A stretch of 64,000 nt of DNA from Terriglobia bacterium (GCA_963664115.2 CAXWPJ010000012.1:384001-448000); one strand, 5' to 3'. Counted from the first letter of the stretch, positions 16,203 to 61,811 are shown. Numbers and translations are program-made. The notes: a model not told the origin generated them from the sequence alone.

Positions 16203-16604
16203 ATGCGATGGGTTCTACTGCTGGTATTAGGTTTCGGGGCGTGGGCTCCGTTTGCGTACCCGCACCACTCTATTGCCGGCATGTATAACACGCGCGAAGA
16301 GGTCACGATCGAGGGGATCGTCGCCGAACTCCGATTCCGTAATCCACACCCGTTCCTGATCGTCAACGTCGGAGGTGCAGGTAGCCGGACGCAGTGGATA
16401 CTCGAGATGGATAATCGCCGAGAGATGGCCAGAATCGGTATGACGGACGAAACCTTGAGGCCCGGCGACCGCGTCATCGTCTCCGGCAACCCGTCCCACG
16501 ATGTGTCGCAGCGCATCTACATCCGCAAGCTTGACCGTCCTGCAGACGGCTTTGGATACGAACAGGTCGGCAACAGCCCCCGGATAAACACACGTTCCCG
16601 CTAA
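16203..16604 (+). CDS. DUF6152-like secreted protein (His-His N-terminus)
   Basis: Signal peptide then HHS; NPH; W.LE; LRPGD.V.V.G. Confidence 0.85.
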   Translation: MRWVLLLVLGFGAWAPFAYPHHSIAGMYNTREEVTIEGIVAELRFRNPHPFLIVNVGGAGSRTQWILEMDNRREMARIGMTDETLRPGDRVIVSGNPSHDVSQRIYIRKLDRPADGFGYEQVGNSPRINTRSR

Positions 16605-16736
16605 TCTTCCCTGAATCTTCGTAACGCCAAGCCGCTTTTCTCGACAGCAGTCGCCGCAGAGCGGCGAAGCGAAACACAGGTCACGAGAACAGTCCAAACC
16701 AAGCGTTACCGGTGAACCCTTTGCGTCTCGATAGCA

Positions 16737-16765
16737 TTGACAATCGCAGTCGTCAAAACTAGACT
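16737..16765 (+). promoter_or_regulatory. sigma70-type promoter of the DUF6152/partner operon (copy 1)
   Basis: TTGACA-17 nt-TAGACT; identical hexamers upstream of the paralogous operon at 53609. Confidence 0.75.
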
Positions 16766-16956
16766 GCGGTAGAAGTCGATCACCTGAAGGCCGCCGACTG
16801 CCACTGTTACCGTAGGGCATGGGTGCGGTGCTCCCGAAAGGGGAAGCCTTGGCAGAGGTGGCGGCAAGACAATAAAGCACGCCGACTGGGGGTCCACACG
16901 GGTGAACTTCCACACGATTCGAATCCCTGTTCCGGCGTCGCTCAGGAGGGATCTAC

Positions 16957-17340
16957 ATGTTCCGAATCTTACAGCTTCTTCTGGTTTTCGGTTTTTGCTT
17001 CACAGCCTTTGCTGTGGCGCACCACTCTACGGCGGCGGTGTACTTCATGGACGACGAGCCCATCACACTGAAGGGAACCGTGACAAAAGTGGAGTGGCAG
17101 AATCCACATATATGGGCCTACATTGATGTGACCGATGAGACCGGGAACGTCACGAACTGGGAAGTGGAAATTCAAACCAATCCGGCCAGAATGTACAGGG
17201 CAGGCTGGTCCAAGGATTCATTAAAGGTTGGCGATGCCGTGACCGTGGAAGGTCTTCTCCCGAGAAACGCCGCCTTGAACCGAGTATTGAACCGGTCCCT
17301 GATTTTGCCGGATGGCAGAGAGTTGGGCAGCCGGCAGTAG
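16957..17340 (+). CDS. DUF6152-like secreted protein
   Basis: AVA|HHS, WQNPHIW, NWEVE, LKVGD; RBS AGGAGG. Confidence 0.88.
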   Translation: MFRILQLLLVFGFCFTAFAVAHHSTAAVYFMDDEPITLKGTVTKVEWQNPHIWAYIDVTDETGNVTNWEVEIQTNPARMYRAGWSKDSLKVGDAVTVEGLLPRNAALNRVLNRSLILPDGRELGSRQ

Positions 17341-17428: not shown

Positions 17429-18205
17429 ATGAGAATTTGCATTCAGCTTTCAGAAAGACCGCTCATCCTGCAGCTGTGTCTTGTGATTCTGGTCGGCACG
17501 GTGATGCTTGCCCCCGTCCCTGCTGCTGCGCAAGATTGGAATCCCGAGGATCTAGGAGGGATCTGGCGGACTTCCATACGGGACATCACACTGGGGATGC
17601 TGCCCGGCGAGGAGATCTCCTTTACTCCCTACGGCGCACAACAGCATAAGGCCTTCGATTTGCAGGTATATTCCAGGAGGGGATGCGAGATTAAGGGCGC
17701 TACGCGACAGCTGCTTTCGAACAGCCTCTCGATGTTCGTTCAGGCCCCCAGCCTTCAGATGATGGTGATATTACACGAGGACCACAACCGTTTTCGGGCA
17801 GTTTACATGGACGGCCGTGATCATCCCGAAGAAGTTTATGACATCCCGGAGCCCTTCGGACATTCGATTGGGCACTGGGAGGACGACACGCTCGTCGTGG
17901 ATTCGATTGGCTTCCGTGACACGACCTATTTGGACACGAACGGTCTCGGTCACAGTGCGCAACTGCATCTCACCGAAAGGTACCGGAGGACTGGGCCGGA
18001 CACGATCGAGTGGACCACCACGGTTGAGGATTCGCTCTTTTACACGCATCCCTTTACTTTTCGAAGCATCTTCACCCGCCAAACCGGTTTGCGGTTGATG
18101 ATGTATGACTGCGAAAACGAAAGAGATATCGAGCACCTGGAGTCCATAATTCGAGGTGATAACGAGATTCACCGGAATCCTGAAGTTTTTGTATTCCCCG
18201 AGTGA
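17429..18205 (+). CDS. Secreted hypothetical protein, DUF6152-partner family
   Basis: RAVYMDGRDHP, GHSIGHWEDDTLVVDSIGF, HSAQLHLTERY, C-terminal YDCEN. Confidence 0.82.
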   Translation: MRICIQLSERPLILQLCLVILVGTVMLAPVPAAAQDWNPEDLGGIWRTSIRDITLGMLPGEEISFTPYGAQQHKAFDLQVYSRRGCEIKGATRQLLSNSLSMFVQAPSLQMMVILHEDHNRFRAVYMDGRDHPEEVYDIPEPFGHSIGHWEDDTLVVDSIGFRDTTYLDTNGLGHSAQLHLTERYRRTGPDTIEWTTTVEDSLFYTHPFTFRSIFTRQTGLRLMMYDCENERDIEHLESIIRGDNEIHRNPEVFVFPE

Positions 18206-18484: not shown

Positions 18485-18634
18485 CCATCAGTCTGGTATT
18501 TGACAAGATACGCGTCGGGCTGGTCGGCCCGATAACGAAAAACCGACAGTTCTTCTCAGTTCATTACGGAAACTTCTGTGCGCGGGTATTATTTTCTGGC
18601 ACTATTGCGCGAGGTGAGAACCTTGGGAGGACAC

Positions 18635-19255
18635 GTGGCTTGGCTTAACAGACTCATTCCCGTAACAATCATTCTGTGTATTTCGCAGCCTGCTTTCGCG
18701 CAAAGCTGGATGACGCACGTCAGTCTGGAGGATCGCTTCAGCGTCAATCTTCCTGGTGAGCCTGAAGTAGAGGACCTCACCTACCCCTCGGAATATGGGG
18801 CCATATTCCCAGGACGGGTCTATATCTACGAGGATGGCTCAAACCGATATTCCGTCACCGTGATCGATTACACGGACGCGGAAAGAATACACGAGGAACG
18901 AACCAACAAAACCGAAGCCGACAGCCTGCCGATCTACTGGCAGATTGATGTGCGAGCATCTATCGCCTATGCAGCGTGGGGGTTCCGTCAAAGGGACGCC
19001 AAAGTCACCTATGATGCCTGGCACTACATAAACCTCATTGAAGGGCACCAGCTACAGCTTACGAATGCAGATCAATCCCGTACTTTCGCGGCGATTTATC
19101 TGCACGAAAGCCGTCTCTACATCCTGGAGGCCACCGTACCGCAGGGTGCGGCGCCGCCGGGACTGTTTCAGCAATCCCTAACTATCCTCGATGAAGAGGG
19201 CAACAGGGTGCGCTACGATTCGATCTACTCCAACCAGTTACCAACCGGACCCTGA
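18635..19255 (+). CDS. Secreted hypothetical protein
   Basis: GGAGG RBS before GTG, signal peptide AFAQ; directly upstream of a DUF6152-like gene. Confidence 0.75.
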   Translation: MAWLNRLIPVTIILCISQPAFAQSWMTHVSLEDRFSVNLPGEPEVEDLTYPSEYGAIFPGRVYIYEDGSNRYSVTVIDYTDAERIHEERTNKTEADSLPIYWQIDVRASIAYAAWGFRQRDAKVTYDAWHYINLIEGHQLQLTNADQSRTFAAIYLHESRLYILEATVPQGAAPPGLFQQSLTILDEEGNRVRYDSIYSNQLPTGP

Positions 19256-21109: not shown

Positions 21110-21568
21110 ATGACCATTTCAATGAATCGCTTTGTCGTGTGCATAGCGGCCGTGGGAGTTTTGTTGCTGGCCGGTTTGAACGCGGCGACATTCGCGCATC
21201 ACGGAGGGTTTGTCAATTGGCAGCAGGAAAGTTTGATCGGCCCGGTCACCTTTGTAGCCACGAGTTTTGCGTTTCGTTTTCCGCATCCCCAGATATCCGG
21301 TGAGATCAGGGACGAGACCGGACAGGTCAGGCCATGGGTCATTGCACTGCGTCAGACGCCCACCGGTTTACGGGCTCAAGGCTGGAATCGGACTTCTATC
21401 AAGTCTGGAGACACCCTCGATTTGACCTATAGCCCGCATGTATCCGCAGAGAACGTCGGTATAGCCCGCCGCGTGGTCGTCAACGGAGAATTTCTCCCCA
21501 TCGAACCGGGTGATGAGGAATGCCGCACGACGACGACGCCCTACCGCCGCTGCGGAGACGTGCAATGA
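21110..21568 (+). CDS. DUF6152-like secreted protein (divergent)
   Basis: TFA|HHG, FPHP, W, IKSGD. Confidence 0.75.
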   Translation: MTISMNRFVVCIAAVGVLLLAGLNAATFAHHGGFVNWQQESLIGPVTFVATSFAFRFPHPQISGEIRDETGQVRPWVIALRQTPTGLRAQGWNRTSIKSGDTLDLTYSPHVSAENVGIARRVVVNGEFLPIEPGDEECRTTTTPYRRCGDVQ

Positions 21569-21651: not shown

Positions 21652-22470
21652 ATGCACAGAGTCTATTGCATGGTCTGGGTTGTAGCGATGGCAGCCGGTA
21701 TGCTTTCTTCAGTAGCTCAAGCGGTGCAGGAGGCCGGTGACCCACGTCCGGGAAATGCGGCCGCCTTCGACCCCCACGATTTTTCTGGACACTGGCACCG
21801 CGAGACGCCCCTCGTCACCTTCGGTGTTGTCCCGACTGTCGCGAACACCACGATCGCGGAAGCTCCGTTTACAGCGGAGGGTAAGGCCCGCTTCGACAGC
21901 AATAAGCCGGGCTACGGCCCCAGAAGAAAACTCGAGAGGAACGATCCCTTGGGACGCTGCGAGCCCATGGGCTTGGTTCGGAATCTTGTCGCTGAAATTA
22001 CTGAGCCCCATCCGACGTGGCAAATTGTTCAGACCGCCGACAGGATCATCCAGTTTTTCGAGTATCGACACGACTGGCGCGAAATATGGATGGATGGGCG
22101 GAGTCTTCCCACCGCGGACGAAGTTTATCCAAAATGGAACGGTTATTCTGTAGGGCGTTTCGAAGGAGAGACGCTTGTTGTGGAGTCGATCGGTTTAGAC
22201 GAGAGAAGCTGGATCGACAAATTCGGCTATCCTCAATCCGAACAGATGCACGTCGAGGAACGCTATCGGCGTGTGGACATCAATACTCTGGAGCTCAGGA
22301 TGACGATCACGGATCCGCTGATATATGCCGGTCCTTGGGAGAGCGACATAAAGGTATTCAGCCTGGACCGTGAGAAAGCCAGTCGATGGGACGAGCAGAT
22401 CTATTGCGTACCCGCCGAGGAATTCTCGTATCAGGAATTAATCGAGTCCGGTAACGTGGTCCCACGGTGA
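21652..22470 (+). CDS. Secreted hypothetical protein, DUF6152-partner family
   Basis: DPLGRCEPMG, REIWMDGR, GYSVGRFEGETLVVES. Confidence 0.82.
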   Translation: MHRVYCMVWVVAMAAGMLSSVAQAVQEAGDPRPGNAAAFDPHDFSGHWHRETPLVTFGVVPTVANTTIAEAPFTAEGKARFDSNKPGYGPRRKLERNDPLGRCEPMGLVRNLVAEITEPHPTWQIVQTADRIIQFFEYRHDWREIWMDGRSLPTADEVYPKWNGYSVGRFEGETLVVESIGLDERSWIDKFGYPQSEQMHVEERYRRVDINTLELRMTITDPLIYAGPWESDIKVFSLDREKASRWDEQIYCVPAEEFSYQELIESGNVVPR

Positions 22471-22557: not shown

Positions 22558-24735
22558 CTAGCGGGCCGGTCTCAGGTATTTGACTTCCCCATCACCGCTA
22601 TAGAAAGCCCAGGTCCCAGCGAGCGGAACCTGGCCAACGCCCGGTTGTGTCCAGTCGCAAACGCCCTCTGGAAAACTTTCTCGAAGGCCGGTGAGTTCAG
22701 CGGCAGCCAATGACCGCGTGTAGTCGCTCCGATCGACGGGCTTGAGCGTGCACTTCAAGACATCGTTGGCCGCTGGGGCTCCCGCCACCATGCGGGCGTC
22801 CGTGCCGATTGGGAACAGTTCCCCGCAACGATCCATGTCGGTGATCTTCGTTGTCGCCGAGGTGTAGCATGCATCGACAAAGCCGGCCGGCCGATGGGCC
22901 CCGACCTTCTGTGCCTGCCCCAGCTCCGAGCTATCCGCCAGTACGCGGGTGACCCACTGGTCCAGAACGGCAACGGCTTCCGGCGAAACGATCCCCAGGA
23001 TCGACTCGGGTCCACGGTGCCCAACCTCGTGCATGACGAACCTGACGTGGTTGTCGATATTTCCATTGGATTTCATCAGCCGGGCACGAGTGACCAGCGA
23101 ATGGTAGCCGTCATGCACGTCGACGTCACGGGCTTCGCCCGGCGGGCATGGCGCGGCTGTGCAGATGCCATCCGTGTATCCGCGGACGTCGAGGATTGGG
23201 ATAGTCCTCAAGCCACCGTCACCGGTATTGAGACGCCCGGTCTCGTAAGCGACCCGCACCGCGTCCGGATTGGCGTGAGCCCGCTCGCCGGACACAATCA
23301 CACCGTTGATGTCATGACCGCCAATGCGTGCGTTCAGATCTGCAAATTGGTCGAAGGTGATGATGCCGTCGTTGAATGCCTTCAAGCCATACTGGACACC
23401 GACGTTATCCCAGGGGCTGCGAGCGAAGCCCGTCGCCGGATCGATGCCATATACATTGACTAGATTGTCCTGGTATGTGCAACGTACGTCCGCCCATAGC
23501 TGGGGGTTGGAAGACATTTGCTCGACCACCGAAGCGTCGCAGTTGTCCGGCGACAGGTTGGGGAACCGCGTCGCAGGTTGGGTGCAGTAGCCGAAGGTAA
23601 TCTTACCGGACACCTCGCGCATCTGGATGTCAGTCAACGGCATTTCGGTGTTGTCAAAATAGCGGACCAAAAGGTTGCAGTCGTTGATCGGCGTGTTGAA
23701 ACTCAGCACGTCCGGATAGCTCCGCCACGGCATGATCCCATCGTAAAGGCCCGGGTAGTCCTGGGCGATGAGGTGCTGCGACATCGAACCACCCGAGGTG
23801 CCCATGCTGAGTGTCAATTCCGGCGGACCGAACAGTTCAATGAACCGCTCCTTGATCTTCGCCGCAGTCTCGGCCTGGACAACGTGGTTGGTGTTGGCGC
23901 CCGTCACCATCAACGACCCGCCGGCGAGGGCGTAGCCGGCGCGAATCAATGACTCGTGCAGGTTGTTGTTCTCCCCTCCCACGTAGCCCTTGCTCGCGTC
24001 GAGCGTGCCGATCGAGGTTCCCATGTGATAGGAGGCCCTCACGCCACCGCGGTGGGACATGATCAGCTTGCCGTTCCAACCAGTCCCGTTACTGACCACC
24101 GTTGGCAGCGGTCCCGCCGCCGGGTCGTGTAACAAACTGATCACGTATGCTGACCGGTTGATGATGCCCTTCTCGTACCAATTGATGAGAGGCACCGTCT
24201 GACCAGTCATCGTGGTCGTCATATCAATATCGTTGGGTCGCGGGCGCGCAGGTTCAAAATCCTTCCACGCGCCACCGGTGCTCCGATAAAAATAGCCGGT
24301 GACCGAGGGCGCCGCGCAGCTTTCATCGGTGGCGGGAGCCAGCCCGTGGGCTTCGTTCTCGCAGACGAATGGTGTTTGCTGCGGCCCCGCGAACAAGGTG
24401 CCGTTGATCGGGTGGTTGGTCAGCGTGAGCGTTGCTTCGATGCCGCCAGCGGACACGGCCAGCGCGTTGTCGCCGTCGCTGAGCCCGTCGACCATTCCGA
24501 TCCATCCGCCGCTTCCATCGGCGACCCAGGCTACCTGGACATCCATACCAGCGACGCTTGCCGTGGGAGCGCCATTCGCCCCGGTGACCCTCACCAGCGC
24601 GTCGCCGCCGGTCACCAGTTCCGGAAACGACGACAAGACCTCAACCTTCAAGTCCTGGCTCCAGGCCGGAACGCCCGCAAGTACCTGGAAAAGGAAAACG
24701 CACGACGCCGCGAAGCGCACAACTTTCCGTGTCAT
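22558..24735 (-). CDS. Secreted DUF6351/tannase-like alpha/beta hydrolase
   Basis: VLSS.PELVTGGDALV, GWNGKL, nucleophile-type GTSGG, WDNVGVQYGL, FPEGVCDWTQPG. Confidence 0.75.
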   Translation of the reverse strand: MTRKVVRFAASCVFLFQVLAGVPAWSQDLKVEVLSSFPELVTGGDALVRVTGANGAPTASVAGMDVQVAWVADGSGGWIGMVDGLSDGDNALAVSAGGIEATLTLTNHPINGTLFAGPQQTPFVCENEAHGLAPATDESCAAPSVTGYFYRSTGGAWKDFEPARPRPNDIDMTTTMTGQTVPLINWYEKGIINRSAYVISLLHDPAAGPLPTVVSNGTGWNGKLIMSHRGGVRASYHMGTSIGTLDASKGYVGGENNNLHESLIRAGYALAGGSLMVTGANTNHVVQAETAAKIKERFIELFGPPELTLSMGTSGGSMSQHLIAQDYPGLYDGIMPWRSYPDVLSFNTPINDCNLLVRYFDNTEMPLTDIQMREVSGKITFGYCTQPATRFPNLSPDNCDASVVEQMSSNPQLWADVRCTYQDNLVNVYGIDPATGFARSPWDNVGVQYGLKAFNDGIITFDQFADLNARIGGHDINGVIVSGERAHANPDAVRVAYETGRLNTGDGGLRTIPILDVRGYTDGICTAAPCPPGEARDVDVHDGYHSLVTRARLMKSNGNIDNHVRFVMHEVGHRGPESILGIVSPEAVAVLDQWVTRVLADSSELGQAQKVGAHRPAGFVDACYTSATTKITDMDRCGELFPIGTDARMVAGAPAANDVLKCTLKPVDRSDYTRSLAAAELTGLRESFPEGVCDWTQPGVGQVPLAGTWAFYSGDGEVKYLRPAR

Positions 24736-24835
24736 CGTATCCCCCTGTCGCATTGTCCGTGCGACGTCCGCCGCACCCGACACTTTATGATCGGTCAGTT
24801 ATACCACTGGCGAAGGCCACGCTACTCGCACCGTC

Positions 24836-26191: not shown

Positions 26192-26225
26192 CTAGGTGCT
26201 AAACGCTCATACGAAACGACGGACC

Positions 26226-28954: not shown

Positions 28955-29653
28955 TCAACGCGCTACGGGCGTGCCATAGACTTCGATCCAGTCCACGATC
29001 AGATTTCCCGACGTGCCATGGCCTGCGCCTGAGGTCAGAGTGGTAAAGCCGATCTCGTCAACCTGGCTCAAGTCCACGCCGGTCTTCCAGAGCGGCTGGC
29101 CCCGAACGTTGCCCGCTTCAAACATCGTCTCTGGATTCAGAGGCCTCCATCGAGGGACGTCGACCAGGAAAACTTCGGTCTCGCGTAAATAGGTCGAAAG
29201 CGGCTCTTGATAGTCGCCTACCAGCAGCGTTCCATCCGACAGCTTTATGAGCGGACGAATCTGGTGGAGGCTTCTCTGCCGCACTCGCCAGCGCAGCCGG
29301 CCTGTGCTTCTCAAATCGAGAAAGTTATTCTTATGCTTGAGCATGACGGCCCACGTTCCTTCGGCAACTCCCGTGTAGACGACGCTCACGAGTTCCCCTG
29401 GGTTCGTCGGGTCTCCCTCGTTGCCCAGCAGGAGCCCGGAGTCCCGGCCAACTCCTGGTTTCGAACCCGGACCGTAGACCATTAGATCCAGATTCGGATT
29501 CGTCACCGCGTCCTGTGTCAACTGCACTTGACCCGCGGGTCCCTCCTTAAAGTCTTCACGGAAAAGTAGCGAAGCCGCGTCTTCCTGCGCGAAGCTGTTT
29601 AGGCCGAAGCCCAGAACCACGAGTACCGATAGGATACAAATTGTTTTTCGCAT
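28955..29653 (-). CDS. Secreted hypothetical protein, paralogue of 45969-46706
   Basis: Signal peptide; RPLIKLSDGTLLVGD and DLSQVDEIGF..GAGHG shared with the paralogue. Confidence 0.8.
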   Translation of the reverse strand: MRKTICILSVLVVLGFGLNSFAQEDAASLLFREDFKEGPAGQVQLTQDAVTNPNLDLMVYGPGSKPGVGRDSGLLLGNEGDPTNPGELVSVVYTGVAEGTWAVMLKHKNNFLDLRSTGRLRWRVRQRSLHQIRPLIKLSDGTLLVGDYQEPLSTYLRETEVFLVDVPRWRPLNPETMFEAGNVRGQPLWKTGVDLSQVDEIGFTTLTSGAGHGTSGNLIVDWIEVYGTPVAR

Positions 29654-30554: not shown

Positions 30555-30588
30555 AACTTAATAATTATGAAGAGCGACAGAGACTGAA

Positions 30589-48231: not shown

Positions 48232-48663
48232 CTAGTTGTTGCCTCTAGGCCCGGTAGGTCCTCTATCGTTGGCCGAACCTCCGTACACCCGACGACCATC
48301 GGGCATCGTCACGTTCCGCCCGTTGATGAGGTTCGACCCGTCTCTGGCTCGGAAGCCCTCCACTCTGACGCTATCTCCAATCTTCAGATCGTCTTTGCGC
48401 CAGCCTCTCCTGAACAGATTGTTCGGCGTGCCACCCTCGATGGCCCAATTCTCCACCGCGCCGCTTTCGTCTTCTACATCCACGAACAAGTAGATGTGCG
48501 GATTCCTCCACTGCACTTCCGTGATTTGGCCTTCTACCGTAATGGGCGCATTCGAATCGTATTGGGCCGCGAACGAATGGTGTGCCTCGAGGGAGAGTCC
48601 TCCCAGGAACAGGGCCACACCCACGGCGAATGCACCCGACCACGCTGGTTTCGTTAGCTTCAT
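48232..48663 (-). CDS. DUF6152-like secreted protein
   Basis: LEA|HHSFAAQYD, WRNPHIY, WAIEG, LKIGD. Confidence 0.9.
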   Translation of the reverse strand: MKLTKPAWSGAFAVGVALFLGGLSLEAHHSFAAQYDSNAPITVEGQITEVQWRNPHIYLFVDVEDESGAVENWAIEGGTPNNLFRRGWRKDDLKIGDSVRVEGFRARDGSNLINGRNVTMPDGRRVYGGSANDRGPTGPRGNN

Positions 48664-48830
48664 CGAGCCCTCCAGACTGAAATCCGTTTTGGGGTTGCTG
48701 CGCTTCCTCGACTGAGATGCCCGCTAGATCTAACTACAGGTGGGATGTGTAAGCAAGAAAAGTCTCAAGAGAAAAGTCTCAAGAGCATTAGGAGAAAATA
48801 AGAGCCCTCCCCCCGATAATGATTGGGGAA

Positions 48831-48993
48831 ACAGCGCCGACTCCAACGTCAGATCCAGCGGTAGCCGTCCTTTCTCTAACCCAGCCGTCAGAGTGTCCCT
48901 TTCGACACATTCCATGACGACGTAGTGTGTGGGGTCCTGTTCGCCAACATCGTGAAGGGTGCAGATATCAGGATGGTTCAGGCTGCTTAGAGC
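48831..48993 (-). pseudogene. Internal Ser/Thr kinase fragment (subdomains IV-VIa)
   Basis: LSSLNHPDICTLHDVGEQDPTHYVVMECVERDTLTAGLEKGRLPLDLTL. Confidence 0.85.
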
Positions 48994-49256
48994 GGTGGTT
49001 CACGGCAACGGAGTTGGTAGAGGTGTGGGGCCGCTGGCCGTCCGGCGAGACATCACTGTGGAAATCCAGGCGAGGTCGTGACATCGTGGGGTCTGAAGAA
49101 CCGCATCGCAAGTTCTCGTTTCGCTGTGCCAGCTTAAACGCGGCTGACGTTTCGGAACGTGTAGTTCGTGCGGCAACCCTATGAGCGCTGCGGGGAGCGC
49201 GATACCCCGTGGATCAAAAACAGAACGTGCGTTTAATGGAAAAGGTGAGCATTGCG

Positions 49257-50527: not shown

Positions 50528-51117
50528 CCCCGCCGTTCACTGTCACGAAACCACCGGTGATCTTGCCCGTCTCAGCCTTGGCAGCGCCGGCATCAACAGG
50601 GGATAGAGGCGCGTCGACGTCACCAGGCCTCCCATGATTACGACTGCCATGGGTTTTCGGTTTCATAGCCCCGAGCAGTGCCCGCCATTGCGATAGGCGA
50701 AGGCGCCAGAGCGGTCATCAATGCGGTCATCAGAATGGAGGCCAAACGTTCCTGGGCTCCTCAAACGGGCAACTCCGTCCCGGGCATCTAAGTCGAGTTT
50801 CGCCTGGAAGGGCGCTTGGCAGCGGTTTGTGACTGATTCTGGAGATGGGCGTAGTTCATTGATCCGTTTAGCCGCCACAGGCTTTCTCTCAGATTGAGAG
50901 TTACGACCGTCTGCCCGAAGAGCCCTGGCGCGGGACGGCTGTGGGGGGCGACAAGTTCGACGATCGATTAAATTGACTTGAGGGTGAGCCGGGATATAAT
51001 TTCGCCCGCGGGCACGACCGAGCCACGGTCGAGCAACGTTCAGCGCGACAGCGTCTCCAAACAAACACCTAGACACGCCATGCTTCAACTGGCAGACCAG
51101 TCACGAGGGTCAAACTA

Positions 51118-52962
51118 ATGAGCAAACCGAGCAAACCGCCCGTTAACCGCCGCAATTTTCTGAAGGGTGCTGCGGCTGGTGCAGCAGCGATCGTCGCCGA
51201 ACCCGCCCTGGCAGCGACGCCAGAAGGCGCACTTCCAGCGCCGCTGCCATCGAGTGCTGTTCAGGTGGGGGACGACGGAACGCGCTACGCGTCTGACTAC
51301 ATGGTCGATCTCTTCAAGTCTTTGGGGCTCGAGTACGTCTTAGCGATGCCGGCCGGGAACTTTGCTGGGCTCATTGAATCGGTGGCCCACTATGCGGGCA
51401 ACAGCAACCCCGAGTGGATCACCTGCATGCATGAAGAATCCTCGGTGGCCATGGCGAACGGGTACGCGAAGATTGAAGGCAAGCCCGTGCTGGTGTGCGC
51501 ACACGCAACGGTGGGGTTGCAACATGCCACGATGGGCATCTATGACGCCTGGTGCGACCGGGTGCCAATCTACATGGTGCTGGGAAATACTCAGGATGCG
51601 ACCCAGCGTGGCGGGTATGTCACCTGGGTCCACAGCGCCCAAGACCCGTGTGGCCTGGTTCGCGATATTACAAAGTGGGACGACAATCCCATCTCGACGG
51701 CACATTTTGCCGAGTCGGCTGTGCGCGCTTACAAGATAGCCACGACTCCACCGATGGGGCCGGTAGCACTCGTGCTGGACGAGCACCGCCATCTTGAGCG
51801 AGTCCCCGCGAATATGCGAATTCCCACTTTGAGCGTGCCTACGGCGCCTCAGGGTGACGCGTCAGCCGTAGCCGAGGCGGCGAGACTTCTGGTGGCGGCT
51901 CGGAATCCTGTGATCACCGTCGGCCGAACCGCACGCACGCCCGCGGGCGTGCCACTGCTGGTCGAACTGGCCGAGACCTTGCAGGCTGGAGTCGTCGATC
52001 GATGGCACCGGCGGATGAACTTCCCGTCGCGTCACCCACTCAATGGCGGCGATTTGAACGATGCCGATGTGATTCTGGCCCTGGAGGCAGGCGATATCGC
52101 CGGCATGGCTCGCCAGGCCAAACAACGTGACGCCACGGTGATCAATGTCAGCGACACTGAACTCTATCTCAAGAGCAACTACCAGGATTTCTTCGAATAC
52201 GCCGAAGTGGATCTATCCATAAGCGGAGACGCGGAGGCGACCCTGCCAACGCTGATCGAATCGGTGAAGCGCTTGATCACGCCCAATCGCCGAGTCGCCT
52301 TCGAGGCACGCGGCCGGACGGTGGCAGCGGCGAACCGGCAGGCCCTGGACAGAGAGCGCATAGCGGCCACCCACGGCTGGGACGCCAGCCCGATCAGCAC
52401 GGCGCGGCTTTCCATGGAATTATGGGAGCAGATCAAGAACGAAGACTGGTCGTATGTGTCGGGCTGGGTCACATGGCCCCTGCGGCTCTGGGATTTCGAC
52501 AAGCATTACCAATTCATCGGCCGCGCAGGCGGAGAAGGCATCGGCTACCATCTGCCGGCGACCATCGGAGCTGCTCTCGCCAACAAAAAGTATGGCCGGC
52601 TGACGGTCTCGATCAACGGCGATGGGGACTTCATGGTGGCGAACGGTGCATTGTGGACGGCCGCACATCATCAGATTCCGATCCTGATCATCATGCAGAA
52701 CAACCGTGCGTACCATCAGGACTACATGGACATGGACCGCATTGCTCATGTGCGGGACCGGGGAAGCTCCTCGACAATGGGTATCGGAACCGAAATCACA
52801 AACCCCGATATCGACTACGCCCAACTCGCGCAAAGTTTAGGCGTCGCAGCCGAAGGTCCGATTTCAGACCCCAGGGATCTGGCGGCGGCCATTCGGCGTG
52901 GCATTGAGGTCGTCAAGGGGGGGCAGCCCTATCTCATTGATGCCATCACACAACCGCGGTAA
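51118..52962 (+). CDS. Thiamine pyrophosphate-dependent enzyme (ALS/benzoylformate decarboxylase-like) with Tat signal
   Basis: NRRNFLKG, HEESSVAMANGYAK, GDGDF..(x24)..NN. Confidence 0.9.
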   Translation: MSKPSKPPVNRRNFLKGAAAGAAAIVAEPALAATPEGALPAPLPSSAVQVGDDGTRYASDYMVDLFKSLGLEYVLAMPAGNFAGLIESVAHYAGNSNPEWITCMHEESSVAMANGYAKIEGKPVLVCAHATVGLQHATMGIYDAWCDRVPIYMVLGNTQDATQRGGYVTWVHSAQDPCGLVRDITKWDDNPISTAHFAESAVRAYKIATTPPMGPVALVLDEHRHLERVPANMRIPTLSVPTAPQGDASAVAEAARLLVAARNPVITVGRTARTPAGVPLLVELAETLQAGVVDRWHRRMNFPSRHPLNGGDLNDADVILALEAGDIAGMARQAKQRDATVINVSDTELYLKSNYQDFFEYAEVDLSISGDAEATLPTLIESVKRLITPNRRVAFEARGRTVAAANRQALDRERIAATHGWDASPISTARLSMELWEQIKNEDWSYVSGWVTWPLRLWDFDKHYQFIGRAGGEGIGYHLPATIGAALANKKYGRLTVSINGDGDFMVANGALWTAAHHQIPILIIMQNNRAYHQDYMDMDRIAHVRDRGSSSTMGIGTEITNPDIDYAQLAQSLGVAAEGPISDPRDLAAAIRRGIEVVKGGQPYLIDAITQPR

Positions 52963-52972
52963 GGAGGCTGGA

Positions 52973-53398
52973 TTGACCAAGATATCACCAAACTCGAAGG
53001 TGCTACCCGGATGGGCGGTCTGGCTCATTTCTCTGACTGCCTTAGTGGTGCTCTTCGTGCCGGTCTCTGGCGCCGAAACTCAAGGCAATGCGCCCGCCGG
53101 AAATCCGCAAAACGGTAAGACTGTCTTCATGAACACCGGCTGCTACCGATGCCATGGAACTGTGGGGCAGGGCGGCCCGGGTGGACGGCTGGCCCCGAAC
53201 ACTATTCCGTTTGGGATCTTTGCTTCCTTTGTGCGCAACGGAAAAAGAAGCAATCCCAATGCCAACGTGAATTGGTCGGGAATGCCGCCTTATTCGGAGA
53301 AATTCATATCGAATTCCGAACTCGCAGATATTCACGCTTATCTTGCCAGTATTCCGCCATCGGCTCCGGTCGGGAGTATACCGTTGTTGAACGATTAG
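52973..53398 (+). CDS. Monohaem class I cytochrome c
   Basis: AAGGAGG RBS, signal peptide, CYRCHG, GMPPY. Confidence 0.87.
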   Translation: MTKISPNSKVLPGWAVWLISLTALVVLFVPVSGAETQGNAPAGNPQNGKTVFMNTGCYRCHGTVGQGGPGGRLAPNTIPFGIFASFVRNGKRSNPNANVNWSGMPPYSEKFISNSELADIHAYLASIPPSAPVGSIPLLND

Positions 53399-53608
53399 AG
53401 TATGTCCCCGCGATTCGGTCCGTTGCCGGTCCAACTTCCGATCAAAAATGGCCAAACGAACGGCTCTTTCTCTATTTTTGAAATTCTCAACGTCAAGAAG
53501 ATGGCCACTTTCGACCGATCCAGGCACGGACCACAAGTCCCCCTGATATCAGTCAGACTTATATTCGCCACCCACACCCGCCCGTGCTATCTTCGTCCGC
53601 CGACACGA

Positions 53609-53730: not shown

Positions 53731-54108
53731 ATGTTCCGGACTCTACAAATTGTTTTATTTTGCTTCTGTTTCGCGGCCGTGGCCGTGGCGCACCACTCCA
53801 CGACTGCCGTATACGACGCGGACGAGCCGGCCATAATGCTGGAGGGAACCGTGACGCAGGTGGAATGGCGGAACCCGCACATATGGTTCTACATCGATGT
53901 CGTTGGTGACGAGGGTAACGTCACGAACTGGGGCGTGGAATTCCAGACCCCTCCCGCGAGAATGTTCAGGAGAGGCTGGACGCAGGAATCGTTGCAGGTT
54001 GGCGACGTGGTCAAGGTGGAAGGTTCTCCCCCGAGAAACCGCGAGCTCATCCGCGTCTTGAGCCGGACGACGATCCTGCCCGACGGCAGAGAACTGGGCG
54101 GCAGATGA
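53731..54108 (+). CDS. DUF6152-like secreted protein, close paralogue of 16957-17340
   Basis: AVA|HHSTTAVY, WRNPHIW, ILPDGRELG. Confidence 0.9.
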   Translation: MFRTLQIVLFCFCFAAVAVAHHSTTAVYDADEPAIMLEGTVTQVEWRNPHIWFYIDVVGDEGNVTNWGVEFQTPPARMFRRGWTQESLQVGDVVKVEGSPPRNRELIRVLSRTTILPDGRELGGR

Positions 54109-54206: not shown

Positions 54207-54971
54207 ATGAGGAGTGGCATTCAGTTTTCATTTTGTTTCGTGATTCTAGTCAGCGCCGTCATGCTTTCCCCCGTCCCCACCGCCGCCCAATCGGATTGGG
54301 ATCCGCGGGATTTCGGGGGCATTTGGCGCGCCGGCACAAGAGACATCACGGTGGCGTTGCAGCCCGGCGAGGAGATCGCATTCACACGCTATGGCGCCGA
54401 GCAGCACCGGGCCTTCGATCTCAAGGACTATTCCACCAAGGGATGCCTGCACAAGGGGCTCACCCGGCAGTTGCTCTCGAACGCTCTTTCGATGTTCGCT
54501 TACGATGACGATCTCGAAATTATGATGTTCCTGCACGAGGACCACTACCGCTGGCGGGCAATCTACATGGACGGCCGGGAGCATCCGCGGGAGGCGCCCG
54601 ATTTTCCGGAGCCGGCCGGACATTCGATCGGCCACTGGGAGGGCGACACCCTGGTTGTGGACTCGGTCGGTTTCCGCGACAGCACCTATCTGGACACCGA
54701 CGGGCTGGGGCACAGCACCGAGCTGCATCTCATCGAAAGGTACACCCGGACGGGACCGGACACGATCGATTGGGTGGTGAGGGTCGAGGATCCGACGTTT
54801 TTCCTCCATCCGTTTACCTTTCAAACGGAGTTCACCCGGCAGCCTCCCAATATCCGGCTGATGTATTATGATTGCGACTACGAACAGGACATCGAACATT
54901 TGGAGTCGTGGATCCGAGGCGAGGAAGGTGAAATTCACACCAATCCTGATGTTTTCGTGTTCCCTGAGTGA
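54207..54971 (+). CDS. DUF6152-partner protein, close paralogue of 17429-18205
   Basis: GHSIGHWEGDTLVVDS; same VFVFPE end. Confidence 0.85.
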   Translation: MRSGIQFSFCFVILVSAVMLSPVPTAAQSDWDPRDFGGIWRAGTRDITVALQPGEEIAFTRYGAEQHRAFDLKDYSTKGCLHKGLTRQLLSNALSMFAYDDDLEIMMFLHEDHYRWRAIYMDGREHPREAPDFPEPAGHSIGHWEGDTLVVDSVGFRDSTYLDTDGLGHSTELHLIERYTRTGPDTIDWVVRVEDPTFFLHPFTFQTEFTRQPPNIRLMYYDCDYEQDIEHLESWIRGEEGEIHTNPDVFVFPE

Positions 54972-55642: not shown

Positions 55643-56077
55643 ATGCGAATCAAGCTAACGAGTCTAGTTGTTGTTGCCGGTATCCTCCTTTACGCAGTGC
55701 CTGTGTTTGCGCACCACTCCTTTGCTGCGGAATTTGACGCCGGCAAGCCCATCACCCTCAGGGGAAGCATCACCAGGCTCGAGATGCCCATCACCCTCAG
55801 GGGAAGCATCACCAGGCTCATGACAAACCCACATGGGTGGCTTTACATAAACGTCACGGAAGAGGACGGCAGTGTACAGAATTGGGCCGTCGAAACGGGT
55901 GCCCCAAGGGCTCTTATGAGAGCAGGTGGGAACCGGGAAAGCTTGGCGCCAGGAACGGAGATCATAGTCGAGGGATGGCTTGCTCGTAACGGTACGCCAA
56001 CGGTGAACGGCAGAAACATCATGTTCGCCGACGGGCGATCGATTACGACCGGCTCCTCGAATCCAGAGATCCAGTAA
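55643..56077 (+). CDS. DUF6152-like secreted protein with an internal in-frame duplication
   Basis: VFA|HHSFAAEFD, NPHGW, WAVE; PITLRGSITRL present twice. Confidence 0.85.
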   Translation: MRIKLTSLVVVAGILLYAVPVFAHHSFAAEFDAGKPITLRGSITRLEMPITLRGSITRLMTNPHGWLYINVTEEDGSVQNWAVETGAPRALMRAGGNRESLAPGTEIIVEGWLARNGTPTVNGRNIMFADGRSITTGSSNPEIQ

Positions 56078-56139: not shown

Positions 56140-57321
56140 TCAGTATTGCCTGGTGATCTTGAACGTCCCGCTCTCGTTGCCCCGGGTGTAGGTGCCGATC
56201 AACGAACGGGCAAGCCAGGTCAGATTCTCGAACTTTCCGTCCAGGACGACTCTAGCGGCTCCAGTCCCGCTTTCAATGTGGACGGTCCAGTCATCCGGGT
56301 TGAGTTCCGCCTGTGTGATGGGAACACTTTGCGGTCCCGGATTGATGGTACCCGTGATGGCCTCACCGTCCCAATCCATCACAATCATCAGGCCGCTCTG
56401 GGTGTTCTCATCTGGACCCCATTCACCGACGAAGCTCCCCTTCACCGGGTGTCCGTGACCGGAATAGGCTCCGACATTGCCGGTTCCTGTTGCTCCGTTG
56501 GTTTCCCTGACGTAGCTTTCCTGCCAGCGGTTGTTCTCCTGGCACTTATAATCCCTGATCTCGGAATCCGGACTCCAGGAAAGATCCACAGCAACGGTCC
56601 AGGGCCGCGTGTAGGCTCCGGGATCATCGATAGTGGCTTCGATGTGAAGATTGTTCAAGCTGGTACGCGTGTATCTTTCGATCAAGTGCATCTGGCCCGT
56701 ATGCGGATCGCCGGCGCGGTCAATCCACGTTCCTTCATTGAAGCCGACGGTATCCACAACCAGCGTATCGCCCTCCCAACGGCCAATCGCGTGTCCCATG
56801 AACGTCGGGAAGTTTTCAAGATCCTCTCTTGGCGGATGCGGGCGCCCATCCAGGAAAATCTCACGCGAGATGTTTCCGGGGAATTCCCGAAGTTGAATGA
56901 TGCGTTCCTGTTCGGGGAGCTGAATGAATTCGATCGGGTGCGGCCCACCTCTTGCGTACGGTAGCGGCGGCGGGATGCAGAACCCCTCAGGATCTTCTTT
57001 CCCAAATGTTATTTGATCGCGGTACTGCTGGAGGGCTCTGGCCCAGGGCTTGAAAGGAATTCCCTCGGATTGCGGCGGATCTATCAAGATATCCAAATAA
57101 TTCGGGACCGATCTGATAAGCCAAACGCCTTTTCCGGTTTCGGTTCTTCCCAGGTTCGGCCTGCCATCCGGCAGTCGGGGAACCGGCTCTCCCGGGTCAG
57201 GGCCCCCAGGGTCCGGAAGTCCGGCTGTTCCCTGCGCGGCGAGGGTGGATGCCAGCAGGCAACACGAGAGTATGAAGATTGCCGTTATCGTCACCGATCT
57301 TGTAATCCAATGATCGTTCAC
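56140..57321 (-). CDS. DUF6152-partner protein fused to an extra C-terminal beta domain
   Basis: DPEGFCIPP, REIFLDGRPHP, GHAIGRWEGDTLVVDT, YKCQENN; then GHPVKGSFVGEWGP.. domain. Confidence 0.82.
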   Translation of the reverse strand: MNDHWITRSVTITAIFILSCCLLASTLAAQGTAGLPDPGGPDPGEPVPRLPDGRPNLGRTETGKGVWLIRSVPNYLDILIDPPQSEGIPFKPWARALQQYRDQITFGKEDPEGFCIPPPLPYARGGPHPIEFIQLPEQERIIQLREFPGNISREIFLDGRPHPPREDLENFPTFMGHAIGRWEGDTLVVDTVGFNEGTWIDRAGDPHTGQMHLIERYTRTSLNNLHIEATIDDPGAYTRPWTVAVDLSWSPDSEIRDYKCQENNRWQESYVRETNGATGTGNVGAYSGHGHPVKGSFVGEWGPDENTQSGLMIVMDWDGEAITGTINPGPQSVPITQAELNPDDWTVHIESGTGAARVVLDGKFENLTWLARSLIGTYTRGNESGTFKITRQY

Positions 57322-57367
57322 GCTGCCCTCCTTCATCCAACCGTGTCAATGTATTCGAATATCGGTG

Positions 57368-58592: not shown

Positions 58593-59038
58593 GAAGATCT
58601 CCTTCGGCCCGGGGGCCGTCTGAATCAGCTGGCGCAAACCCGCCTCGCCTCCCCTCACGGGAAACGCACATACTGTGGGTTGCACCAAGAGCAAGTCTCA
58701 AACAGCTTAATCGCACCACCGGTCTCTTGCAAACCGACAAACCGTGCGGTCAGCCTGCGTCCTCTCACCGAACGCTCAAGGTCTGGATAGGCTGTACTTG
58801 AGCGCTGCTGCGGCGCACCCGGGGCCCCCCATGTAAGGTTTCACCCAACACCAGAGAAGCACTTTCCGGTGCCTGTCGCGCGGCGTGGAACGGTTGTTGC
58901 GCTGAGGCCGTCCAGGCCAGACCCGGGAAAAACACAGACATTCGGATTTAGGCTTTGCGTCACACTGAATCTCCTCCGTCACTTAGACAATGAACCGATC
59001 GCGTCCAAGACACCGTTCGGCGGTTTGGAGCGACCGTG

Positions 59039-60628
59039 TCAAAGCGTCAGCAACGGCCGCAGCTCCCGCACGTCCCTCAGTTCCTCGAGCGCATTCACCT
59101 GTTCGATCACCGCTTCCGTTCTTGTGTCCCCAAGTATCGGCACCATGAGCTCACGTGCTTTCGCGGCCACGCCTTCGGTGTCGAGCGGGTTTTCTGGCGT
59201 GCCGGGCGCGTGACTCACGAACAGGCTCACCCGAGCCCCGTCGCGAGTCGTCACCTCGACGAAGCCGCTGCGCGGTGCCTCCAACACGACGAGCTCCGGA
59301 TCAGCGATCAGCTCCACACGCTGCCTGGCTTGAACGATGGCGGGCTCCGACATACGTTCGAAGGAATGGCTGTTCTCGAAGTTGATCATGCCATCGACCA
59401 GGGCCACAGCCAGGATGTGCTGGCAGTTGACGTCCGGCATCAGACGGTTGTCGACAATCCGTGCACCGTCCTCAGGCAGTCGCACGAGAATATGCTCGAC
59501 GTTGTCCACCGTCAGGCCGTACTCCTCGCGGAGCGTAAAAAAAGCCGCCAGCGGCGACTGGATGGGATAGCCCACCGGAAACGTCTTGATCGCGGTTTCC
59601 TCAACGTAGAATCGGCTGCCGAGATCCGCAACCATTTCCTCCGGTGCTGCGTCGTCCGACAAAGCATCGAGCACGTTGCGTTCGCCTTCCAGAGCATCGA
59701 GGACACCGGTGAATCCACTCTGTATCATTGTCGCTGCAGCGACACCGTTGCGTGCCCCCATTCCACTGAAGTCGAAAGCCTTTTCGATATGCTCCACATC
59801 CCGGACCCAACTCCACACACCGGAAACCTGCTGGACGGCGTAGGAGATCGCGTAACGCATTCCCGTCTCATCGAAGCGTGCGAGAGACGCAGCCCCAGCA
59901 CTGGCCCCGAATGTCGAGCTGTAACCCTCCGCACTGCGAAAATTCGCACGGACCAGGGCCGGTCTGAGCGCGACCAGGAACCGGCAACAGAGATCGTAGC
60001 CCAGAGTTATCGCTCTGAGCAGTTCCTCACCCGAACTGCCTTCGCGCTCACCCATGGCAAGCGCTGCCGGCACGACCGAACAACCGGGATGGGCTTTTGT
60101 GAAGGGGTGGAAGTCATCCGTCTCATCCGCATGGGCGGACATCGCGTTGGCAAAAGCAGCATTGACAGCCGACGTCATGATGTTTGTCGTCACGACGGAT
60201 GCTTCCGGGATGCCACCCTGCGCCCTCACGTAGTCGATTGCGACTTCCCCGGGCCTGAGGCGTGCACCCGAAACGATTGCGCCGAGCGTATCGAGAAGCC
60301 GATGTTTGGCTGCGAGCCGAACGCCGGGCCCGAGGCTCAGTTCCCTCGCTTCGACCATGTATCGCGCCAGACGGCCCGTCAGATCAGGACTTCCGGCTGT
60401 GGGGGACGTGGGTTGTGCGGGCTCAGCCGCCGGGTCTTCAGTGACTGAACAGCCCCCGACAGTGGCGGCGGCGAGAAAGCCACCTGCAGCGCCCTTGAGA
60501 ACGCGTCGCCGTGTAATGCGCCCCGGTGCGTCCCCGCCTCGGACCGGAACGTCCGTGCCCCGCAGATCATCGCTCACGTATTTCTCCTCTTTCTCCATTT
60601 TCTCCCTGGCAATGTTCTCTTCATTCAC
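59039..60628 (-). CDS. MmgE/PrpD family protein with Tat (lipo)signal
   Basis: TRRRVLKG..GGC; HADETDDFH...HPG; PGTPENPL. Confidence 0.88.
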   Translation of the reverse strand: MNEENIAREKMEKEEKYVSDDLRGTDVPVRGGDAPGRITRRRVLKGAAGGFLAAATVGGCSVTEDPAAEPAQPTSPTAGSPDLTGRLARYMVEARELSLGPGVRLAAKHRLLDTLGAIVSGARLRPGEVAIDYVRAQGGIPEASVVTTNIMTSAVNAAFANAMSAHADETDDFHPFTKAHPGCSVVPAALAMGEREGSSGEELLRAITLGYDLCCRFLVALRPALVRANFRSAEGYSSTFGASAGAASLARFDETGMRYAISYAVQQVSGVWSWVRDVEHIEKAFDFSGMGARNGVAAATMIQSGFTGVLDALEGERNVLDALSDDAAPEEMVADLGSRFYVEETAIKTFPVGYPIQSPLAAFFTLREEYGLTVDNVEHILVRLPEDGARIVDNRLMPDVNCQHILAVALVDGMINFENSHSFERMSEPAIVQARQRVELIADPELVVLEAPRSGFVEVTTRDGARVSLFVSHAPGTPENPLDTEGVAAKARELMVPILGDTRTEAVIEQVNALEELRDVRELRPLLTL

Positions 60629-60641
60629 TGTCGGCCCACCC

Positions 60642-61811
60642 TCAGTCGATCGGTTTCTCCCAACCCTGCTCGAAATACTTTTCCCAGTTCTGCGCCCAGG
60701 GCCGGCCAAAGTAATCGATGTAACCCTCATCGAAGGGCAGCAGCTGCGTGGGTCTGCCGTCAGGACCGTTGACAATATTGCTCATCACGCGGCACTCGAC
60801 GAAGGTGTAGCGCATCTCCGGGTCGTCGAGTTCGGCTTGAAGGTCCCACTCGGTCAGCGTATGCAAGGGCCGGACAAAGGCTTCCGGATCGTAAAATGTC
60901 GTCTCGATGATGAGGCCGGTTCCATCAGGGTTCGAGCGGATGATCTCCACGGTCTCCATCGCATTGCTGTACTCGAACATCGAGATTCCCAGCGTCCACG
61001 CCTGGACATTCGCTGTCCAGCTGACCAGGGTGTCGTGGTCCCAGAATCCGATTGTTTCCCCATACCACTGCGGCACCAGTTGCACGTGCTGGCGGCCGAT
61101 GAGCACCTTGCGGATAAAATTGTCGGCGACGCCGCCGAGGAACTGAACCTGAAGCGGGTTAACCAGAACCTCGACCTCCCGGACCGCACCCCGTGTGAAC
61201 CATCGCATGAATCCCTCGGGATAGCAGAAGGAAGACACCCACTGGGGCGAATTGCTCACGGTCTCGTGATAGTTGGCCTGGACCATGCGCTGCTGGTACT
61301 CCGGGGTCAGCAACGATATCACCGTGCCCGTTTGAAGGTTCCGGCCGTCAACCCACTGGTCGGCCAAATTCCCTTTCGTGTACACACCGCCCCAGTCGGG
61401 CATGGTCCGCAGTGTGTGTATGGTGGGCCCTCCCCCAGCAGCCTCCGCTTGAGCCAGCAACACCATGTAGTGTTGCTCCGCGCTCTGATAGTCGTAGGGG
61501 CTGACGATATCAGAGACGTCGCGGTCAAAGTCACAATCGCCCCATGCAGCAAACCTGCCGCGACGCCACATATCGGAAAGCCCGCGGGGCGTGTTGCATC
61601 GGGCATATCGTGGATCCGCCCAATACTCGCGATCCAAATAGAAGTTCTCGGTCGTAAACAAGTCCACCGGCAGCGGCACGATTCCCGCCGGCGCTCGGAG
61701 CTGTGGCTCCCCTTGCGCGGCACCTGAAGCCGGCGCCACAGTCGTCAGGGACATCAGGGCCAGAAACAGGGTCATCGTGAACGCGGGTACTCTTCGACCG
61801 GCCATAGGCAT
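60642..61811 (-). CDS. Long secreted member of the DUF6152-partner family
   Basis: [27 protein letters not shown]; extra N-terminal Cys-containing region. Confidence 0.72.

Follow-up and report, generated by a model that had tools for sequence, protein, structure and literature searches.

We analysed a stretch of 64,000 nucleotides from the genome of a Terriglobia bacterium (GCA_963664115.2, CAXWPJ010000012.1:384001-448000), called the window hereafter, and found that it holds part of a greatly expanded set of genes for two kinds of secreted proteins that are mostly encoded side by side. The first kind, named S, is a small protein with a His-His pair at its predicted mature N-terminus, and the second, named L, is a larger protein of a barrel family. 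A third unnamed family, X, is encoded beside some of the S genes. We tentatively propose, giving it somewhat less than an even chance, that S, modelled as an oligonucleotide/oligosaccharide-binding (OB) fold with a free His-His end, and L, modelled as a barrel, form one secreted complex in which S would hold a metal next to a small organic ligand held by the barrel. A first reading of the window, made from the sequence alone, had described the system as expanded and uncharacterised, and both terms hold. The genome (4.89 Mb in 12 contigs, the window being C12:384001-448000) encodes 126 S and 140 L; L has no named family, and S belongs to DUF6152 (PF19649), which has no described function and whose definition does not include pairing with L.

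Seven S genes lie in the window, given here with their scores against PF19649:

16203-16604, + strand: S1, 67.6 bits; FAYP precedes His-His (Pro at position -1), an atypical and uncertain cleavage point
16957-17340, + strand: S2, 87.9 bits; signal peptide ending in AVA, then HHS; partner of L1
19274-19645, + strand: S3, 96.3 bits; ARA, then HHS; a lone S whose partner is X rather than L
21110-21568, + strand: S4, 30.8 bits; divergent; TFA, then HHG; FPH replaces NPH; partner of L2
48232-48663, - strand: S5, 108.6 bits; LEA, then HHS; upstream of its partner L3; the copy used for modelling
53731-54108, + strand: S6, 87.1 bits; close paralogue of S2; partner of L4
55643-56077, + strand: S7, 89.6 bits; convergent with L5

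The sequence-only reading had listed seven small secreted proteins with a predicted mature His-His and an internal (N/T/F)PH. All seven were recovered in their places and all are DUF6152 proteins, with scores above the Pfam cut-off (30.8-108.6 versus 27 bits) and E-values from 3e-7 to 1.7e-31 in the Pfam scan. Each starts with a hydrophobic stretch followed by His-His and carries the internal (N/T/F)-P-H. The alignment of the seven has H-H, P-H and several Gly and Trp as invariant columns, and Ala stands at position -1 before His-His in six of them, the exception being S1. These E-values, together with the genome-wide pattern described below, exclude chance as an explanation. The homologues of S5 agree with this assignment, as all those among the 120 matches listed carry DUF6152. 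A search of PDB sequences with S gave nothing relevant (the best match was a ribosomal protein, E 0.089), and a literature search, which did not extend to supplements and subscription journals, found the name DUF6152 in no paper. On the strand opposite S1, a 228-aa open frame (16227-16913, -) overlaps this gene; it has no family match and is probably not a gene.

The His-His end is nearly constant across the genome. The pair stands at the start of the domain in 123 of the 126 S, the exceptions being one Y-H and two fragments. In these 123 proteins the residue at -1 is small in 122 cases (Ala in 112, Gly or Ser in 10), the residue at -3 is A, V, L, S or T in 117, and all have a hydrophobic 9-mer upstream. 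We judged the signal-peptidase I pattern by this -3/-1 rule, not with a dedicated predictor; the rule fits 122 of the 123 copies, which supports the earlier supposition that cleavage would expose His1. The third His, in N-P-H, follows His1 by 25 to 30 residues, most often 28, and the complete H-H...P-H set is kept in 121 of the 124 full-length S of the genome. It is equally stable elsewhere: of the 180 S domains collected at foreign loci and among database proteins, 177 contain all three His. Two of the others have a truncated N-terminus. The third exception, P0308, is the only fusion found in which L precedes S, and there NRDH replaces HH and SNPY replaces NPH. This single case fits the idea that the three His act jointly and need a free N-terminus. 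We consider it fairly likely that the N-terminal amine and the three His of S form a metal site.

Six L genes lie in the window. Their scores, where given, are those of profile A3, built from 59 sequences chosen from the 120 listed homologues of L3 and from the window paralogues:

17429-18205, + strand: L1, 285.4 bits; 88 nt after S2
21652-22470, + strand: L2, 214.2 bits; partner of S4
47193-48053, - strand: L3, partner of S5; the copy used for modelling
54207-54971, + strand: L4, 269.3 bits; 68% identical to L1; partner of S6
56140-57336, - strand: L5, 235.9 bits; with an extra C-terminal region of ~130 aa
60642-61811, - strand: L6, 38.7 bits; 21% identical to L1; with an N-terminal extension and no adjacent S; a weak, distant member

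The common ancestry of these six larger secreted proteins, proposed from the sequence, was borne out by their alignment. They are paralogues with 68, 41, 30, 28 and 21% identity to L1, and share invariant W, C, R, G-R, TLV, E and D. None of the six window copies matched a Pfam family. The 59 aligned members gave five scattered chance-level Pfam matches, none of them to lipocalins or fatty-acid-binding proteins (FABP), an NCBIfam scan of 11 proteins matched no family, and a search of PDB sequences with L found no relative. L3 has 1195 homologues, and none among the 120 matches listed has a Pfam domain. The family is nonetheless large: out of 1.84 billion sequences, we counted 16,662 representatives at E≤1e-3, 9,672 at E≤1e-10 and 1,464 at E≤1e-30. 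The ESM Atlas clusters for L and X are unnamed; the closest clusters with a name are DUF3471 (0.80), DUF6152 (0.78) and DHOase (0.88), all below the level that counts.

Among the 140 L of the genome, the first Cys is kept in 132 copies and the late Cys is present in 137. The conserved positions are C105 (0.94), R140 (0.92), D145 and R147 (0.79), G161 (0.99), W167 (0.86), E200 (0.94), R201 (0.86) and D218 (0.97). R140, D145, R147, E200, R201 and D218, kept in 79-97% of the copies, could belong to an interface or an active site. In 92 of the 140 proteins a G-x-W stands before the first Cys, and its W is invariant in the six window copies. Some L domains occur in tandem: a 537-aa protein (C2:333464-335074, -) has two of them behind a single signal peptide, and many two-domain proteins of ~480-530 aa are found among the representatives of the L family.

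The size of the expansion was estimated by searching 32,612 six-frame open reading frames (ORFs) of at least 70 aa with A3 and with profile A4 (S, 58 sequences). The 126 S and 140 L were obtained at E≤1e-3, and 121 and 132 of them, respectively, remained at E≤1e-10. A separate search with DUF6152 gave 125 matches, 124 of them over the cut-off, and none in 14 control genomes. The matched domains of S and L cover 135,561 bases, i.e., 2.8% of the genome. The median identity between paralogues is only ~30% for S and ~28% for L. Hence, the expansion is old and diverged, not recent.

The two families are closely linked. The sequence-only reading had pointed to four co-directional pairs in which the small gene precedes the large one, and these are present, with spacers of 88 (S2-L1), 83 (S4-L2), 178 (S5-L3) and 98 nt (S6-L4); S7 and L5 (55643 and 56140) are convergent. 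Genome-wide, an L lies at most 700 bp from 95 of the 126 S (52 with S then L and 30 with L then S on the same strand, eight fusions, and five on opposite strands), and 97 of the 140 L have an S within this distance. Of the remaining S, 12 have an L at 700-3000 bp and 19 have none within 3 kb. With one L per 35 kb, an arithmetic that ignores clustering, about eight of the 126 S would be near an L by chance. When neighbouring genes were grouped, 85 of 132 clusters held both families. The arrangement was also looked for in 79 foreign loci encoding L: an S lies no more than 4 kb away in 46 of them, and 43 have S and L on the same strand at most 700 bp apart.

Eight genes of the genome, corresponding to six distinct sequences, encode fusions with a signal peptide, HH, the S domain and then the L domain; one natural fusion is at C12:334002-335153. 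The S domain also comes first in three cases within a single ORF, in gammaproteobacterial and Bryobacterales loci, and in the database protein P0250. A search for longer, fused forms of S gave none; this is weak evidence, and the fusions came by other routes. One candidate, a 621-aa frame (C10:379326-381188) that seemed to have S at its C-terminus, was rejected as non-coding read-through before a normal S with its own signal peptide. Three of the fusions are near-identical (C6:43863-44972, C11:2736-3845 and C2:264397-265506). An IS110-family transposase recurs beside S and L genes (four of its seven genome copies), and its representative abuts the C11 fusion copy; the trio may be carried on a mobile unit.

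The partners have also diverged together. We compared the pairwise identities of S with those of L in 87 pairs on the same strand, at most 700 bp apart and with one S per L (39 S and 53 L were left out). This mirror-tree comparison gave a correlation of 0.64, or 0.57 after removing the pairs above 90% identity, against 0.00 ± 0.036 (maximum 0.11) in 500 permutations. In 41 of the 87 pairs the nearest paralogues agree, the S and the L in question being partners of each other.

The distribution of the two families among genomes points in the same direction. In 41 genomes of the same genus, family and class, including the one under study, S was found over the cut-off in 20 and L in the identical 20; one further genome had a sub-threshold S only. 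An analysis of co-occurrence had been suggested as a check. Counts per genome in this survey are lower bounds (at least), and related genomes are not independent. Large expansions were found in seven genera of the family, and none in two other genera (five genomes) or in 15 of the 16 genomes of other families. The system also occurs in Acidobacteriota, Proteobacteria and Actinobacteriota: the 79 L-encoding loci found elsewhere belong to Acidobacteriota, Alpha- and Gammaproteobacteria, Acidimicrobiia and others. A tblastn search of plasmids with L matched eight records, from Novosphingobium (6), Sphingobium and Croceibacterium. Cultured carriers include Croceibacterium atlanticum, Novosphingobium humi and Novosphingobium sp. 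PP1Y. The idea of a two-protein system is thus upheld by adjacency, by fusions (found here, at two foreign loci and in a database protein), by co-divergence and by coincident phyletic patterns. We think it quite probable that S and L bind each other.

Folds were assigned to the models of S5 and L3 with Foldseek alone. The S5 model (predicted local distance difference test, pLDDT, of 83.1) is a barrel of five strands with one helix. Its structural matches are OB folds, namely the anticodon-binding domain of LysRS (E 5.6e-4), PriB (target-normalised template-modelling, TM, scores of 0.60-0.64) and Stn1/Ten1, and weak OB-fold Pfam matches of S agree with the model. S accordingly models as an OB fold. 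The L3 model (pLDDT 81.2, predicted TM score 0.74) has helices between the first two strands. All its listed top matches are CRBP, CRABP, FABP or UnaG (best E 1.9e-4), with 16 matches at E≤0.001 and target-normalised TM scores of 0.56-0.63. L accordingly models as a fatty-acid-binding-protein-like barrel with calycin topology. G-x-W in the first strand is a feature of calycins (FABP and lipocalins), and L resembles this group (CRBP, CRABP, FABP, lipocalins) in this motif, in the position of the helices and in the superposition of its model on CRBP and FABP. It differs from calycins in having no sequence-family match, in being twice their size and secreted, in its conserved Cys pair and set of R, D and E, and in being paired with S.

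In the proposed mechanism, S and L would act jointly as one secreted two-part complex, with the His-tipped S holding a metal ion beside a small organic ligand in the barrel of L. The barrel pockets would hold varied small ligands, which the complex would transform or process in the periplasm, near neighbouring hydrolases, pyrroloquinoline quinone (PQQ) dehydrogenases and outer-membrane receptors. Chemistry would be the task of the constant His tip and specificity that of the variable barrel; this division would account for the retention of more than 100 pairs at ~30% mutual identity. We favour catalysis over mere carriage, given that the invariant His-His, the third His and the six charged residues of L are hard to explain by carriage alone.

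Copper is a possible metal, at rather less than even chances. Known histidine-brace proteins have beta-sandwich or cupredoxin-like folds, whereas the model of S is an OB fold, and S comes with a barrel partner that looks obligate and with more than 100 paralogues. It resembles them in being secreted, in having His as its predicted mature residue 1 and in having a further invariant His. The third His of S also recalls the three-His CuB site of PmoB. In a histidine brace, copper is bound by an N-terminal His, through its amine and its side chain, and by one more His, in a T-shaped N3 arrangement (PMC10952591). The classes listed are the lytic polysaccharide monooxygenases (LPMOs) AA9-AA17, the particulate methane and ammonia monooxygenases (pMMO/pAMO), X325/Bim1, CopC, PmoF1, and YcnI with its 'mono-histidine brace' (PMC10952591). 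The sequence-only reading had raised the possibility of a copper histidine-brace module. Membership of a known brace family is not supported: besides its different predicted fold, S matches none of the Pfam families of these proteins, and no relevant PDB sequence was found. Judging from its sequence, S may function in the manner of a brace protein, but it cannot be classified among them. Literature searches on a histidine brace in an OB fold and on a partner of lipocalin type found only known work on CopC, YcnI, LPMOs and SilF.

Several observations weigh against the proposed complex. Pairing is not obligatory, since 31 of the 126 S have no L and 43 of the 140 L have no S within 700 bp, and in 33 of the 79 foreign loci S is missing from the 4 kb around L; arrays with L only also exist. 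S pairs in addition with the unrelated X and with DUF6644 membrane proteins. Co-divergence can arise from duplication of the two genes as a unit, and is no proof of contact. Along the S5 sequence, strand 1 separates the third His, at one end, from His1/His2 at the other. Apart from its Cys pair, L keeps no His, Cys or Met (no His reaches 0.70 in the 140 copies), and any metal site would therefore have to come from S, perhaps with carboxylates of L. No copper-handling genes (CopC, multicopper oxidase, PCuAC) were found among the enriched neighbours. Finally, we chose 22 L-family representatives with extra sequence from the 150 listed: one has S+L, one L+S-like, one L+MBL (P0258; MBL, metallo-beta-lactamase), three CarboxypepD_reg+L and two L+DUF3471, the rest being without a further Pfam domain. 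The fusions lacking S (MBL, CarboxypepD_reg, DUF3471) would fit a general ligand-binding accessory domain equally well.

The genes around the clusters bear on these questions. We used crude gene calls (greedy longest ORFs of at least 110 aa, 4,038 in total), took at most two genes other than S and L per side within 2.5 kb of each of the 132 clusters, and grouped the resulting 439 neighbours by BLAST. The enriched families, with the fraction of their genome copies found in these neighbourhoods, include MBL-fold hydrolases (11/29 and 10/33), NHL propellers (9/25), DUF5916 (7/23), amidohydrolases (6/18 and 4/12), DUF1554-like proteins (6/10), an outer-membrane barrel family (5/17), PQQ dehydrogenases (5/11) and GSDH dehydrogenases (5/9). 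Profiles of the neighbours matched some of the same functions in the 79 foreign loci: NHL in 10, outer-membrane barrels in eight, MBL in six, PQQ in six and DUF6644-like in five.

These neighbours leave room for a non-catalytic carrier, an explanation that we hold rather unlikely. L would carry small hydrophobic or amphipathic compounds entering through TonB-dependent receptors, S would be an adaptor or latch docking the loaded barrel to a common partner, and the neighbouring enzymes would do the chemistry. The FABP-like model of the barrel, the fusions of L to MBL, CarboxypepD_reg or DUF3471, the very mixed set of neighbouring enzymes and the outer-membrane barrels, both in the genome and in the eight foreign loci, are all consistent with it. 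On a plasmid of Croceibacterium atlanticum 26DY36 (NZ_CP011453.2, 38.9-40.6 kb), moreover, the annotation gives DUF6152, DUF6152, a hypothetical protein (L) and a TonB-dependent receptor on one strand, an S-S-L-receptor operon adjoining a MarR regulator. Carriage leaves unexplained why the three His and the free N-terminus are kept in 121 of 124 S, and why the charged residues of L remain at 79-97% across paralogues that are ~28% identical.

A more specific form of the proposed complex is a long shot. S-L would be a new class of two-subunit periplasmic copper oxygenase or peroxygenase, with a brace-type copper on S, a calycin barrel presenting one small substrate of hydrophobic or aromatic nature, over 100 specificities in each genome, and electrons from neighbouring cytochromes c. 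If true, it would be a bacterial counterpart of the P450 or LPMO families, oxidising recalcitrant organic matter. PQQ dehydrogenases and cytochromes c could supply electrons to S-L, a suggestion whose basis is their enrichment in the neighbourhood. The window offers one candidate:

52898-53398, + strand: cytochrome c (Pfam Cytochrom_C, E 1.2e-7), between an enzyme dependent on thiamine pyrophosphate (TPP) with a twin-arginine translocation (Tat) signal and the S6-L4 pair, all co-directional

It is possible that this cytochrome is the electron partner of S6-L4. The TPP-dependent enzyme and the cytochrome together occupy 51118-53398 (+), directly upstream of S6-L4, and could also be a periplasmic TPP enzyme with its own electron acceptor.

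Metal trafficking is an improbable alternative. S would be a periplasmic chaperone like CopC or YcnI, handing copper or another metal to CopD-like DUF6644 proteins or to cuproenzymes, and L would be an accessory. The N-terminal His motif of S is in its favour, as are the DUF6644 (PF20349) genes, which have 19 matches in the genome, mostly as tandem pairs. Eight of the 12 DUF6644 loci are within 2 kb of S or L, two of them forming same-strand S-DUF6644-DUF6644 runs, and 12 of the 14 genome copies of DUF6644-like membrane proteins are in S/L neighbourhoods. The same association occurs on a plasmid of Novosphingobium humi (NZ_CP103870.1), where two DUF6644 genes are divergent from a GH39-like gene, L, DUF6152 and a TetR regulator. 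One pair lies in the window:

30062-30679 and 30663-31181, + strand: tandem ORFs for DUF6644-like four-helix membrane proteins, 7.6-8.6 kb from the nearest S or L; PF20349 matches at C12:414054-414515 and 414676-415071 (30054-31071 in the window)

The Pfam CopD model has no match above the cut-off in the genome. Its two best sub-threshold matches (E 0.0034 and 0.011) are both DUF6644 genes, the better one being the first gene of the window pair. One Novosphingobium DUF6644 protein has a weak match to DUF2214 (E 0.0015), and the family has one conserved His in its first helix. The arrangement of a predicted periplasmic protein with an N-terminal His, sometimes beside multi-helix membrane proteins, recalls CopC/CopD or YcnI/YcnJ, a weak resemblance that would concern a minority of S genes; it differs in that the CopD similarity stays below threshold, only some S, a minority, have such a neighbour, and S is unrelated to CopC.

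OB-fold chaperones for copper do exist. CusF is a periplasmic Cu(I)/Ag(I) chaperone of this fold, with Met, His and Trp as metal ligands. Like it, S is a small, predicted periplasmic OB-fold protein with a possible metal role; it differs in that S has no Pfam match to such chaperones, no Met is conserved at 60% or more among the 126 S, and the ligands would be His-His and one further His. SilF is another OB-fold periplasmic Cu(I)/Ag(I) chaperone (PMC10656224), and the same comparison applies. Against trafficking also stand the 19 DUF6644 matches versus 126 S and the lack of copper-handling genes noted above. A chaperone needs no 126 paralogues at ~30% identity; more than 100 diverged copies lead us to disfavour trafficking alone.

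A redox module, in which the barrel of L would bind haem or a different organic cofactor, with the His residues or the N-terminal amine of S as ligands, and which would act in electron transfer or as a sensor, seems very improbable. Some barrels, such as nitrobindin and nitrophorin, bind haem, in cytochrome f an N-terminal amine serves as haem ligand, and the three conserved Arg of L could hold carboxylates such as propionates. Genes fusing cytochrome c to DUF6544 are also near S/L arrays in all four genome copies, in addition to the cytochrome c just upstream of S6-L4. The top 50 Foldseek matches of L3 contain no haem-binding barrel, L has no conserved His, and nothing explains why an electron carrier should be present in more than 100 diverged copies. 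That S and L form no complex, being independent secreted proteins merely co-regulated and co-duplicated in catabolic islands, would agree with the optional pairing, with the two gene orders (52 versus 30) and with co-divergence by co-duplication alone, and is very unlikely in view of the independent S-L fusions here, in gammaproteobacterial and Bryobacterales loci and in P0250, and of the coincident phyletic patterns.

Other genes accompany the system. The representative of X in the window is:

18578-19255, + strand: X, ~220 aa, secreted, just upstream of the lone S3

All 11 genome copies of this family are among the neighbours of S/L clusters, ten of them beside a lone S and mostly 15-250 bp away. 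X has no Pfam family and is not related to L according to hhalign (probability of 3.9%). A secreted, unnamed family of 233 aa has five of its six genome copies near S or L. Its paralogues in the window (~240 aa) are among the further genes that we observed:

28955-29776, - strand: paralogue of the 233-aa secreted family
45969-46706, + strand: paralogue of the 233-aa secreted family
22558-24783, - strand: full-length tannase-like DUF6351 protein (E 5e-192), after S4-L2 on the opposite strand
57-4070, - strand: 1337-aa protein with an N-terminal two-partner-secretion (TPS) domain
26196-28811, + strand: Ser/Thr protein kinase fused to PD40/WD40-like beta-propeller repeats

Parts of the S5/L3 stretch are present in the metatranscriptomes of four runs from two studies, with contigs covering both genes. 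In run X20, overlapping contigs (47918-48180 and 48161-48380) span the spacer between S5 and L3. Such RNA-library contigs may include DNA carry-over and show neither the level of expression nor a single transcript, and their gaps (48746-49000 and most of 50900-53550) are uninformative, as are runs that share only a small fraction of words with the stretch. A scan for promoters and terminators around S5/L3 gave no more sites than shuffled sequences. The same libraries bear on S7, which carries an in-frame tandem duplication of 36 nt (55784-55819) that repeats 12 residues (PITLRGSITRL.) directly before NPH. Contigs of runs X19 and X20, 95-99% alike and coming from a relative, skip 55784-55819. 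Hence, the duplication is strain-specific. One contig of the X19/X20 type lacking the duplication has a reported mean depth of 1112.

The L family thus remains nameless in spite of its 16,662 representatives in public data, and together with DUF6152 it fills ~2.8% of this genome. If S binds a metal, its invariant free His-His on an OB fold would be a new scaffold for N-terminal-histidine chemistry, which at present only a few families are known to have (PMC10952591). The cultured carriers make the system testable. Its expansion suggests that it may represent a large, unrecognised share of the periplasmic metabolism of uncultured bacteria from soil, sediment and hosts.

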